From: a virus
Direction: 5' to 3' (one strand)
Virus record (IMG/VR): IMGVR_UViG_3300026625_000038
Span: 1 to 25,459 of that record
Length of the DNA stretch: 25,459 bases
Position 1 is the stretch's first letter. Every line of letters begins with the position of its first letter. Both the position numbers and the translations under genes were made by a program. Shown here piece by piece: positions 1,651 to 23,410 of this stretch. The notes under the pieces are model-generated. The model was not told the DNA's origin. It worked only from the letters and a program-made list of their open reading frames with translations, and made no database searches.

Positions 1651-1741
1651 ATAATTTATTGCATTATTGTGATTATAATTATAAGTTCTAATTTTATTTG
1701 TTTTTCATCTATAATTTATTTCATTACTTTGATTATAATCA
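1649..1741. repeat. Two copies of a ~33-bp motif ending in the palindrome TGATTATAAT(C/T)A (left arm)
   Basis: caataatttattgcattattgtgattataatta (1649-1681) and ctataatttatttcattactttgattataatca (1709-1741), 60 bp apart. Inverted counterparts lie at 22361-22393, 22433-22462 and 23263-23296. Confidence 0.8.
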
Positions 1742-17254: not shown

Positions 17255-17274
17255 TATATATATTTATATTTGTC
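17255..17274 (+). promoter_or_regulatory. TATA box + GTC promoter of the gp17-19-like operon
   Basis: tatatatatttatatttGTCata. Confidence 0.6.
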
Positions 17275-17305
17275 ATACTATATATTTATAATTAGGAGGT
17301 CGAAG

Positions 17306-17692
17306 ATGGCTTCCCTCGAAGAAATAATAAAAAACTTAGGAAGAGAAGCTAAAGAAAAAGAGCAAATAGCGACAAGAGTGCTAAAAATTAAGGGCTTAAA
17401 GCGAATAGTTGTACAATTGAATGCAATACCGGAAAATGGAAAAATAAGATATAGTATGACAATACATAGTATAAACAATTATAGAAAACAAATAGGTATT
17501 ACAGCCAGCGACGCTGAAGACTTCTTATTAATTGGCCAATTTCTAGAAAAATATGCGGAAGTTTTGAATGAATATATAAAGTTCACACCAAGAAATAGTA
17601 ATACACCACAAGAAGAAGAAATAGAATTGGAAAATAATGATAATAACGAAACAAAAAAACCAAAAAAGAAAAACGTTGAAGAAGAATTTTAA
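17306..17692 (+). CDS. ssDNA-binding protein class (SIRV2 gp17-like), 128 aa
   Basis: ATG 17306 is preceded by AGGAGG (17294-17299) and a TATA+GTC promoter (17255-17274). It is the first gene of a three-gene operon with the 436-aa and Cas4-like genes, matching the order and sizes of SIRV2 gp17-gp18-gp19. It has an acidic/basic C-terminal tail. Confidence 0.65.
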   Translation: MASLEEIIKNLGREAKEKEQIATRVLKIKGLKRIVVQLNAIPENGKIRYSMTIHSINNYRKQIGITASDAEDFLLIGQFLEKYAEVLNEYIKFTPRNSNTPQEEEIELENNDNNETKKPKKKNVEEEF

Positions 17693-21328: not shown

Positions 21329-22219
21329 TTATGAAATTTCATGAAGCCCAAACCCCATATCCTTTAATGCTGTATACCTCAAATCTTCATAATCTATTCT
21401 ATTTAAAACTTCTTCTTTATTCATTATAATATAATTATCTTTTTGCAACAACAGGAATTTTGTTCCCTCAAACAGGAATTTTGTTCCCTCATCAACTTCT
21501 GCTAAATTAGCATATGCATCACTATTTGTGGTAAACAGCATTGACTTTAATTTATTATCTTTTATATATTCTGTAAACCATTTAAGAAGCATTTGTAACC
21601 TTTTAGGGTGCAAGCTTAGTGTCTCGATATCATCTATTAGAAGTATATCTGGTTTATGATGATATACCAACCAAAGTAACTTTACCGTGTTACTAATACC
21701 TCTTCCTAAATTATCCAAATATGTTACATTATCACCGTTTTCATATAAAAAATCATCAACTACACGTATCACAGCACCATCAATAAGTCCTTTTATCATG
21801 TCATTGAACTTCATATCTTCATCATCAGGCTTAACAAATATACCGTAATGTGGTTGGTGAACCATTGTCCGAAAGGCGTAAGGATATATTATCATCACCT
21901 TATACTTAGTACTACCTTTACAATCATAATGATACATTTCAGAAAAAGGTGAAATAACAGAATTAAATGGAAGACGTGTTCTTTCTGCTTTAACATGTTC
22001 ACATTTTACTTCTTCATCGTTAATATTAACTGAAAAGTTTTCATAATTAATGCTACCTTTTGTATTTAAAATTGTAGAAATATTATCCTTATTCGTTAAT
22101 GCTATTCTCTCCAAAAACGCGGTTTTTCCGACTCCGTTATTACCAACTATAGCAACTGTAGATATATTTTCAAGCAATATGGAACGATTGTAATAAACTA
22201 CTAATAGTTTATTTAACAT
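21329..22219 (-). CDS. Minimal ABC-type / AAA_21-like ATPase (296 aa)
   Basis: Walker A VAIVGNNGVGKTAF, signature-like LGRGISNTVKLL, Walker B plus D-loop ILLIDDIETLSLHP, and an H-loop-like MLFTTNS. It contains an in-frame 21-bp tandem duplication. Confidence 0.85.
   Translation of the reverse strand: MLNKLLVVYYNRSILLENISTVAIVGNNGVGKTAFLERIALTNKDNISTILNTKGSINYENFSVNINDEEVKCEHVKAERTRLPFNSVISPFSEMYHYDCKGSTKYKVMIIYPYAFRTMVHQPHYGIFVKPDDEDMKFNDMIKGLIDGAVIRVVDDFLYENGDNVTYLDNLGRGISNTVKLLWLVYHHKPDILLIDDIETLSLHPKRLQMLLKWFTEYIKDNKLKSMLFTTNSDAYANLAEVDEGTKFLFEGTKFLLLQKDNYIIMNKEEVLNRIDYEDLRYTALKDMGFGLHEIS
21450..21491. repeat. Perfect 21-bp tandem duplication inside the ATPase gene
   Basis: aacaggaattttgttccctca occurs twice back to back, encoding EGTKFLF-EGTKFLL in frame. 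Confidence 0.95.
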
Positions 22220-22248
22220 AATCTTCTTCCCCTTAAATACAATAATCT

Positions 22249-22397
22249 TATGACAAATATAAATCGTTTAAAAAACTATTAACTTAAATTCTTCTCTTCT
22301 CATTTTTTTAGAATAAAAAACAACAAACATCTCACAAATATCCAATCTCTTTCCTTTCTTTGATTATAATCATAACAATACAATAAATTATAGATAA
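22249..22397. repeat. ~150-bp direct repeat, copy A (upstream region of the ATPase gene)
   Basis: Aligns by eye over ~150 bp with 23151-23298: tatgacaaatataaat...aaactattaacttaaattcttc...ttagaataaaaaa...tttgattataatca...caataaattatagata. Confidence 0.8.
22252..22266 (-). promoter_or_regulatory. TATA box + GTC promoter of the ATPase gene
   Basis: The minus strand reads cgatttatatttGTCataag. Confidence 0.55.
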
Positions 22398-22499
22398 CTA
22401 AACAAAAGAAACGAATAAGAAATTAATCTCTTGTTTAATCACAATAATGAAATAAATTATTGTTAAACGAAAACAAAAATATAAAAAAAGGAAATACCT

Positions 22500-22691
22500 T
22501 TAACTATTTTGACGTAATTTTAAATCCAATAACACAAGAAGTGGTATATAAACAAAAATATAACCCAATAACATTATAATACCCAAATAAAAAACGTCCC
22601 AATTCTTTGGTATTACATTAAAATACTCAAATATATAAAAAATAGTCAAAGGCAAAAATAAAAGAAAAAGGATTAAAATTATAGCTTTCAT
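22500..22691 (-). CDS. Small membrane protein (63 aa, two predicted TM helices)
   Basis: AIILILFLLFLPLTIFYIF and LGIIMLLGYIFVYIPLLVLL. Its ATG overlaps the stop of the upstream 145-aa gene (ATGA), implying translational coupling. Confidence 0.55.
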   Translation of the reverse strand: MKAIILILFLLFLPLTIFYIFEYFNVIPKNWDVFYLGIIMLLGYIFVYIPLLVLLDLKLRQNS

Positions 22692-23125
22692 TCTCCCACT
22701 GGTGGAATTAAATAATAACTTAAAGGCAAACTTCCAAGATTTACATATAAAATTTCTTTTATATTTTGTGGTAATCCATCAAGCATTGTAACCGGTTGTT
22801 TACCGCTGTATAGCACATATTCTTGGATTTGTTGTATAGCACCGTTTTTCTCTATACTTACAACACTTACTTTTATTTGAACATTAGCTAAATTACTGCG
22901 ATAAACTGAATACATTAAATATTTAGCGGGATATAAAAGGTAAGACCTTGTACCGTGCCTACCACTAGCAGTTAAATGTAACCGTGAACTTATAATTTTT
23001 TTAGTATTAAAACTTAATAATATGGTATCTGCGTACCCACCATGACTTGTATTTTTATAGTTAAAAAATACAAGTACTTTTTCTTTCTCATTACCGTTAC
23101 TTTTTTCTTCTATTTCCTTTTCCAT
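22688..23125 (-). CDS. Hypothetical protein (145 aa)
   Basis: Intact ORF with a TATA+GTC promoter (23154-23168) in a duplicated upstream region. No motif recognised. Confidence 0.68.
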   Translation of the reverse strand: MEKEIEEKSNGNEKEKVLVFFNYKNTSHGGYADTILLSFNTKKIISSRLHLTASGRHGTRSYLLYPAKYLMYSVYRSNLANVQIKVSVVSIEKNGAIQQIQEYVLYSGKQPVTMLDGLPQNIKEILYVNLGSLPLSYYLIPPVGE

Positions 23126-23150
23126 TCTCTTTCACGTGATATAATAGCTT

Positions 23151-23298
23151 TATGACAAATATAAATCCTTTTAAAAACTATTAACTTAAATTCTTCTTCC
23201 TCTATTTATTTAGAATAAAAAATAACAGACAACTCATAAATACCCAATTTTCTTCCTTTCTTTGATTATAATCAAATTAATGCAATAAATTATAGATA
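23151..23298. repeat. ~150-bp direct repeat, copy B (upstream region of the 145-aa gene)
   Basis: See copy A. The offset is ~902 bp. Confidence 0.8.
23154..23168 (-). promoter_or_regulatory. TATA box + GTC promoter of the 145-aa gene
   Basis: The minus strand reads ggatttatatttGTCataaag, a duplicate of the ATPase promoter. Confidence 0.55.
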
Positions 23299-23410
23299 GA
23301 AAAATAAAAGAAATGAGAATAAAGAGCAATAAAGATAACTAAAGAAATAAAATAAAGGAAAAACAGAAGATAAAAAAATAAAAAAAATAAAAAAAGATTA
23401 AATTAAAAAA

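Follow-up and report, generated by a model that had tools for sequence, protein, structure and literature searches.

A compact stand-alone ABC-type ATPase with a degenerate catalytic site, encoded in a rudivirus genome, as a candidate host-interference gene

What could a solitary ATPase, of a class that is best known from antiviral defence, be doing in the genome of a virus? The question is raised by the virus record IMGVR_UViG_3300026625_000038, whose whole stretch of 25,459 bp is called the window here, and by one of its genes, which encodes a stand-alone ATP-binding cassette (ABC)-type ATPase of 296 amino acids (aa). The AAA_15/AAA_21 class is familiar chiefly from antiviral systems, among them OLD, Gabija, PARIS, Septu, AbiL and retron effectors, in which its ATPases serve as sensor or motor. 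The window holds the whole of a linear viral genome, with perfect inverted terminal repeats (ITRs) of 1,300 nucleotides (nt) each. It is assigned to the rudiviruses, which are rod-shaped viruses of hot-spring archaea, because it encodes a 134-aa capsid protein with 86% identity to the one of SIRV2 and because it holds the conserved 436-aa ATPase/Cas4-like nuclease block. The ATPase gene is found in the right arm, about 1.9 kb inward of the ITR boundary and about 1.7 kb from that block, and its ATG start is backed by the homologues, whose sequences start at the matching position. It is argued here, with high confidence, that the product is an effector-less, virus-restricted ABC ATPase of the AAA_15/AAA_21 class with a degenerate catalytic site. 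As a candidate host-interference gene, it is the subject of a reasonable but unproven proposal.

The assignment to a family is carried by profile searches. In Pfam, the 296-aa protein scores 38.9 bits against AAA_15 (PF13175; gathering cut-off 32.1) and 29.8 bits against AAA_21 (PF13304; gathering cut-off 27), and the precomputed Pfam matches on its homologues agree with these two families. A first-pass annotation, made from the letters of the window without database searches, had described a virus-encoded minimal ABC-type (AAA_21-like) ATPase to which no nuclease or TOPRIM domain is attached. Both descriptions hold: the two profiles are matched above their cut-offs, the modelled fold is that of a single ABC domain, and neither Pfam nor the model reveals a TOPRIM or any other extra domain, the C-terminus being reached about 60 residues past the H-loop. 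The profile searches which that annotation had proposed were run, and no virion-assembly or replication family was assigned by them. In PADLOC, the best matches are to PDC-M38A (3.2e-9), AriA (3.3e-9), AbiLi (3.9e-7) and PtuA (6e-6), all of them partial and drawn from a library without curated cut-offs. Sequence searches of NCBIfam and the PDB returned matches at the level of the P-loop only, all of them below cut-off.

The structure of the protein was modelled with AlphaFold2 (AF2) from 38 sequences. The model has a predicted local distance difference test score (pLDDT) of 85 and a predicted template modelling score (pTM) of 0.86, and it shows a single, two-lobed ABC domain. Its neighbours in Foldseek and VIA-align are SMC heads, Rad50, PtuA, AriA, OLD and the nucleotide-binding domains (NBDs) of transporters, with the Smc1 head at Z 14.6 (root-mean-square deviation 3.5, 215 residues aligned). 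Since a Z of about 14 is obtained for all of them, the fold search, as applied to this model, does not separate the ABC subclasses. The C-terminal TOPRIM fusion of OLD is absent, and the long helices that would form a coiled-coil insertion between the lobes, as in SMC, Rad50, RecF and RecN, are not seen in the model. Among the Pfam profiles, SMC_N reaches 12.6 (cut-off 40), recF 16.1 (cut-off 172) and ABC_tran 20.7 bits (cut-off 25), and all three are thus sub-threshold. The viral ATPase belongs to the OLD/AbiL/AriA/PtuA-like class, reduced to the nucleotide-binding core.

The catalytic site of this core was examined in a motif census of 145 distinct family members. The motifs quoted in the first-pass annotation are all there in the window protein (Table 1); its statement that all ATPase motifs are present was nevertheless too generous, as other residues stand in place of the catalytic Glu and of the H-loop His. 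The catalytic-Glu position (residue 197) is occupied by Asp in 132 members, by Asn in 11, and by Glu and Ser in one each, so that the Walker B motif reads D-D-x-E and not D-E-x-E. Similarly, the position of the switch His holds Asn in 140 members and His in the other 5. When the family is aligned by profile with a canonical AAA_15-type ATPase of the Thermoproteota, D-D-I-E sits on D-E-F-E; the Walker-B substitution is therefore real and not an error of register. More remote relatives, cellular ones among them, share this D-D-x-E and have Gln at the switch position. A candidate Q-loop position (residue 122) holds Gln in 67 of the 145 members, in a loop that is modelled poorly (pLDDT of about 62) and whose placement is uncertain.

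In ABC exporters, the change of the Walker-B Glu to Asp, often with changes in the H-loop, marks 'degenerate' sites, where ATP is bound and its turnover is much slower (PMC7756269). By analogy, and because both the catalytic Glu-to-Asp and the switch His-to-Asn changes are family-wide, we infer that the viral family would bind ATP, could form a head-to-head ATP sandwich dimer and would hydrolyse slowly. It resembles in this the degenerate sites of heterodimeric ABC exporters such as TAP1 and ABCC NBD1, which also combine Glu-to-Asp in Walker B with a non-His switch (PMC7756269). These are, however, membrane transporters in which one of the two sites is degenerate and the other competent, whereas a viral homodimer would have two degenerate sites.

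How widely is this protein distributed? All of the 145 family members found lie on virus-like contigs. In a word-indexed search of 5.8 billion proteins, 93 clusters were recovered at 48-92% identity, all of them metagenomic. When 1.84 billion cluster representatives were searched exhaustively with HMMER, only 32 matches were obtained, which comprise one full-length cluster at 50%, several fragments and, for the remainder, a distant group that includes forms of 460-490 aa. A pattern scan with the viral family found no relative in 185,579 species genomes. In a profile search of 151 Sulfolobales genomes, the short viral-type ATPase was not found, and only a long cellular form was. When 50,697 phage and archaeal-virus records were searched by tblastn, the sole match was ORF210 of ARV1 (30% identity, residues 159-281), and this ATPase gene was not found by the same means in cultured representatives of the carrier virus types. 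Of 42 rudivirus records with a capsid gene, ARV1 alone has a distant relative of the ATPase. A structure search of viral models also placed ARV1 ORF210 first, along with a protein of an uncultured archaeal virus and an 'ABC transporter' of SBFV3.

ARV1 ORF210 (gp35, YP_001542652) is, like the window gene, a rudiviral gene of the right arm that encodes a short, stand-alone ABC-type ATPase. It differs in its length of 210 aa, in the absence of the beta-rich insert of the N-lobe, in the D-A-P-E of its Walker-B region and in the Gln at its H-loop position. It has been annotated since 2005, and the annotation reads 'putative ATPase'. The same protein has been listed as an 'ABC transporter' (PMC4124505).

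The genomic contexts of the family were read in 80 metagenome loci, obtained by pattern-based locus retrieval, and in one viral contig (L006, the same as L084; 45,683 bp). At least six unrelated types of neighbourhood were recognised: that of the window itself, a betalipothrixvirus-like one, an SMV2-like monocaudavirus one, an ATSV-like one and two more, one of which has weak similarity to SIRV2 only. The carriers resemble rudiviruses, betalipothrixviruses, SMV2-like viruses and ATSV-like viruses. In the SMV2-like monocaudavirus contigs (L055-L066, e.g. L059 1471-2202 and L063), a tyrosine recombinase (Phage_integrase, 31 bits) lies directly downstream of the ATPase gene; tblastn gave no ATPase relative in the genome of cultured SMV2. 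The window ATPase is 76-82% identical to the ATSV-like and integrase-linked copies and 51-57% identical to the lipothrixvirus-like copies. Because the window copy is closer to the former than to the latter, the gene has moved between virus families. It is a non-core accessory gene that is common to four kinds of Sulfolobales virus.

In the known systems of this class, the ATPase and its effector are encoded side by side. AbiL (the AbiLi ATPase with the RloB-like AbiLii), the class-2 OLD-like systems and PARIS (AriA/AriB) contain an ATPase of the same Pfam class (AAA_15/AAA_21) as the viral one. Unlike in these systems, no TOPRIM, RloB or DUF4435 partner accompanies the viral gene, and the canonical D-E Walker B and the H-loop His which they keep (as does, for example, the ATPase of locus L171, described below) are not kept by the viral family. 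AriA and PtuA also have helical insertions, without which the viral ATPase is built. A conserved adjacent effector gene, the hallmark of AbiL, PARIS, Septu and Gabija, is not present beside it.

A partner encoded nearby had been expected in the first-pass annotation, and the candidates named were a convergent 73-aa membrane protein, an upstream 145-aa/63-aa pair and a 222-aa protein. These neighbours exist as described in the list of open reading frames (ORFs), but none of them is conserved across related loci. When the ORFs of the 80 metagenome loci and the viral contig were called and clustered into neighbour families, it was observed that no family flanks the ATPase in more than about one-fifth of the loci. 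The expectation of a nearby partner is thus unsupported, because the neighbours vary among loci, the 145-aa protein occurs in viruses in which tblastn finds no relative of the ATPase, the 222-aa protein does not extend beyond near-identical relatives and the 73-aa protein is adjacent in 6 loci only. Hidden homology was also looked for by hhalign. None was found among the downstream genes of about 220-245 aa (F59, F9, F41, F120, F103, F136, F49 and others), where the probability was 5% or less. Searches of Pfam and PHROG gave no match to the effector families RloB/TOPRIM, DUF4435, HNH or helicase next to the viral ATPase. In a Pfam scan of ten neighbour families, the integrase alone was recognised, and no nuclease, TOPRIM, HNH or protease was seen among the families tested.

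A possible counterpart is found on cellular chromosomes. The nearest cellular relatives of the viral ATPase are the long forms of the distant group found with HMMER, chromosomal genes for proteins of 464-488 aa from the Sulfolobaceae/Thermoprotei, carried by Acidianus sulfidivorans (e.g. WP_110379144.1), Metallosphaera yellowstonensis MK1 (L087), Stygiolobus and metagenome-assembled genomes. Of the 151 Sulfolobales genomes sampled, 5 were found to contain the long form; in one genome there is a disrupted copy as well. The long form of the Sulfolobaceae and the viral ATPase have in common a homologous core, at about 25-30% identity, the D-D-x-E Walker B, a non-His switch and a C-terminal motif of the EDLRY type. 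Unlike the viral protein, the long form has Gln at the H-loop position (Asn in the virus), is chromosomal, and comes with an added, conserved N-terminal domain of about 210 aa and a partner gene for a protein of about 200 aa. In Atlas, the N-terminal domain is placed with the MJECL34 family at a template modelling (TM) score of 0.84, which is a lead only. The best PADLOC matches of the long-form ATPase are AbiLi, NsnB and AriA.

The partner gene overlaps the end of the long form in three of the five loci (L087, L090 and L091) and encodes a conserved, Cys-rich protein; two shorter ORFs take its place in L089, and there is none in L088. The motifs GDG..DR, PESG.KG and DKEH are conserved in it. 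By hhalign, this cellular partner matches none of the viral neighbour families (probability below 1%). The two-gene module of the Sulfolobaceae is a candidate AbiL/OLD-like system. The same overlapping arrangement is seen in a Thermoproteota genome (L171), in which a canonical AAA_15-type ATPase overlaps a bona fide DUF3226 gene. As a separate observation, two proteins of the distant group with D-D-x-E and a Gln switch, one long (P0100, 462 aa) and one short (P0106, 248 aa), are both on Logan contigs of 26,420 nt, apparently the same one.

The reading that we favour, with a probability of roughly 0.35, places the viral ATPase gene among accessory conflict genes that are probably expressed early: its product would most likely be a mimic, directed against a host module of an ATPase and a putative nuclease. 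The viral protein would imitate the ATPase core of a host ATPase-plus-effector module and would serve as a nucleotide-dependent clamp or switch, not as a motor. It would co-assemble with the host ATPase or capture the host partner, and either event would leave the host module blocked. A strict decoy, that is, a dominant-negative and slow-hydrolysing ABC head which would lock the host ATPase, or capture its partner, in an inactive ATP-bound complex, is a narrower and more tentative version of this proposal.

The sequences upstream of the gene lend circumstantial support to early expression and to a role in conflict. The 280-nt region 5' of the ATPase gene holds a core promoter-like element, TTTATATTTGTCATA, exact copies of which occur at two other places in the genome (Table 1). 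One of these copies overlaps the listed TTG start of a 140-aa ORF (17270-17692); the true start of this ORF is probably further downstream. A promoter region duplicated between the ATPase and the 145-aa/63-aa pair had been reported in the first-pass annotation, and it is recovered here as a 178-nt direct repeat. Both copies of the repeat contain a motif of about 33 bp (ATAATTTATTGtATT ... TGATTATAATCA), in which TGATTATAATCA is a terminal palindrome. This motif has five copies in the genome, two before the ATPase gene, one before the 145-aa gene and two before an operon that encodes a helix-turn-helix (HTH) protein and AcrIII-1 (PF08960, 113 bits), and all five are upstream of sub-terminal transcription units. 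The small HTH protein (1794-2018) may use this motif as its operator. Judged from these elements, the ATPase gene has its own putative promoter and an operator-like motif in common with the AcrIII-1 operon.

In a study of rudiviruses, upstream sequences in common are reported to be a mark of early and of anti-defence genes, and it is described there that host immunity has been shown to be inhibited by viral homologues of toxin-antitoxin components from the host (PMC11065993). ARV1 ORF210 was not found among the predicted anti-defence genes in the supplement text of that study, as far as this text is accessible (PMC11065993). By analogy with the upstream sequences of such genes, the ATPase is probably expressed early, alongside anti-defence genes.

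Table 1. Coordinates of the ATPase gene, its motifs and upstream elements in the window, and of the cellular gene pairs (rows with a locus name are numbered within that locus)
Feature	Coordinates	Strand	Remarks
Gene of the 296-aa stand-alone ABC-type ATPase (AAA_15/AAA_21)	21329..22219	-	ATG start
Walker A/P-loop GNNGVGKT, residues 26-33	22121..22144	-	K32 kept in 144/145
ABC signature-like LGRGIS, residues 171-176	21692..21709	-	G174 in 145/145, S176 in 140/145
Walker B and D-loop ILLIDDIE, residues 192-199	21623..21646	-	D196 in 145/145, E199 in 145/145
H-loop position FTTNS, residues 229-233	21521..21535	-	Asn at the switch-His position
C-terminal motif YEDLRYTAL, residues 277-285	21365..21391	-	common to the cellular long forms (EDLRY-type)
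In-frame 21-nt tandem duplication in the ATPase gene (EGTKFLF twice)	21449..21490	-	20/21 nt identical
Core promoter-like element TTTATATTTGTCATA	22249..22263	-	about 30 nt 5' of the ATPase ATG
Exact copy of TTTATATTTGTCATA	23151-23165	-	
Exact copy of TTTATATTTGTCATA	17263-17277	+	
178-nt direct repeat, copy 1, upstream of the ATPase gene	22237..22414	-	
178-nt direct repeat, copy 2, upstream of the 145-aa/63-aa pair	23139..23316	-	83% identity to copy 1
Operator-like motif (ATAATTTATTGtATT ... TGATTATAATCA palindrome), proximal copy before the ATPase gene	22361..22391	-	
Operator-like motif, second half-site copy before the ATPase gene	22446-22460		
Operator-like motif before the 145-aa gene	23263-23293		
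Operator-like motif, two copies, left arm	1651..1741	+	before the HTH and AcrIII-1 operon (1794-2384)
Two-gene module, long form and overlapping ~200-aa gene	L087 8001-9963		
Two-gene module, long form and overlapping ~200-aa gene	L090 8001-10065		
Two-gene module, long form and overlapping ~200-aa gene	L091 7474-9469		
Canonical AAA_15-type ATPase (363 aa; D-E-F-E, H-loop His) overlapping a bona fide DUF3226 gene (205 aa)	L171 1495-3203	-	PF11536, 113 bits

Several observations weigh against interference with a host module. The identity of about 25-30% between the viral and cellular ATPases is low for a mimic that is supposed to co-assemble with its model, and the host module was seen in only 5 of the 151 sampled genomes, yet the viral gene is common in metagenomes. 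The module of the Sulfolobaceae is itself a putative and unproven defence system. Its ~200-aa partner has no Pfam or PADLOC match, the DUF3226 model (PF11536) matches nothing in these Sulfolobales genomes, and an hhalign comparison of the partner with a true DUF3226 protein gives a probability of 0.65%. Further, the structural hints for a DUF3226/TOPRIM-like partner are weak. In Atlas, the partner has a feature score of 0.93 to a DUF3226/OLD-TOPRIM cluster and a TM score of 0.62 to a DUF3226 cluster. The partner model (pLDDT 68) gives nothing significant in Foldseek, and its VIA Z of 9.2 to PDB entry 2p62 (161 residues aligned) is tied with that of generic Rossmann-like folds. A true DUF3226 protein, compared with the PDB, had no match, and 2p62 is a putative member of DUF3226 only. 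An Asp in the catalytic position may still support hydrolysis. Lastly, a motif in common with the AcrIII-1 operon speaks of possible co-regulation and not of function.

The alternatives are ranked behind the host-module mimic in the order in which they are taken up here: an exclusion ATPase, a DNA clamp and a transporter subunit. Part of the probability is given to none of the four readings. It may be that the protein works for the virus in defence, as the sensor or switch of superinfection exclusion or of inter-virus competition, with a lineage-variable neighbour or a host nuclease as its effector. The profile families closest to it (AriA, AbiLi, PDC-M38A, PtuA and GajA) are all defence ATPases, and viruses that inhabit one spring are rivals for the same hosts. 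The position of the gene also suits such a role, in a variable arm near the ITR in the window and beside an integrase, a typical cargo site, in the SMV2-like elements. However, the known systems of this class hold the ATPase and the effector adjacent, and no effector-like gene was recognised among the neighbour families tested, which have no hidden homology to each other or to the cellular partner. An exclusion ATPase is on balance unlikely, if the most serious of the three.

An accessory role in DNA metabolism is rated a little lower still. Here the protein would be an SMC/Rad50/RecF-like, ATP-dependent clamp for the replication, recombination or end processing of linear, hairpin-ended genomes. 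A slow ATPase would suit a clamp, the gene is about 1.7 kb from the 436-aa ATPase/Cas4-like nuclease block, and SMC and Rad50 heads are among the best structural matches. The value of these matches is limited, though, as the Z scores are tied across the ABC classes and do not favour SMC/Rad50; the model lacks the coiled-coil insertion; and the profiles favour AAA_15/AAA_21, with SMC_N and RecF far under their cut-offs. Moreover, almost all cultured rudiviruses are without the gene and replicate regardless. The idea that the protein is the nucleotide-binding subunit of a small viral membrane transporter, formed with adjacent small membrane proteins, is very improbable. It is suggested by the annotation of ARV1 ORF210 and of the SBFV3 relative as ABC transporters, and by the 73-aa and 63-aa membrane proteins that flank the gene, the 73-aa family being adjacent in 6 loci. 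These small proteins are, however, missing from most of the loci examined, and no permease-sized membrane protein is encoded nearby. The ABC_tran score under its cut-off and the permease-coupling Gln, found at the candidate Q-loop position in fewer than half of the members (67/145), also speak against a transporter.

Interference with a host module, if true, would bring to light a new type of anti-defence protein and would also point to the two-gene module of the Sulfolobaceae as a defence system. If the strict decoy were true, anti-defence proteins would gain a new class, that of the ABC-ATPase decoy, found in four archaeal virus families and co-regulated with AcrIII-1. If interference proves false, the family is still well defined for asking what a lone, non-motor ABC head does. 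The ATPase class itself is already well known. In the searchable literature, nothing was found on the compact D-D-x-E/Asn family or on its spread across four kinds of Sulfolobales virus, nor on its relation to the two-gene module of the Sulfolobaceae or on the motif in common with the anti-CRISPR operon.

Some observations on the individual neighbours may be added. Homologues of the 145-aa protein (22688-23125, minus strand) are encoded by SBRV1 (40% identity) and by two filamentous viruses, SFV1 and SBFV1 (43-44%), and tblastn finds no relative of the ATPase in these three viruses. Among the loci, the 222-aa protein turned up in near-identical relatives only; it belongs to no recognisable family, and searches of the phage collection and of PDB sequences gave neither a relative nor a meaningful match, respectively. 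The convergent 73-aa membrane protein (phrog_9152) adjoins the ATPase in either orientation. The only membrane proteins near the window ATPase are those of 63 aa and 73 aa, and they are not conserved alongside it. An apparent second copy of the ATPase in some loci ('F0' members, 286-395 aa) was set aside as an artefact of single-linkage clustering, since these proteins have no real similarity to the query by BLASTP.

The ATPase gene of the window also carries a short in-frame tandem duplication, by which EGTKFLF is read twice (Table 1). It is present in the 91%-identical homologue P0002 as well, and the rest of the family is without it. In the model of the ATPase, the duplication maps to a loop of low confidence.

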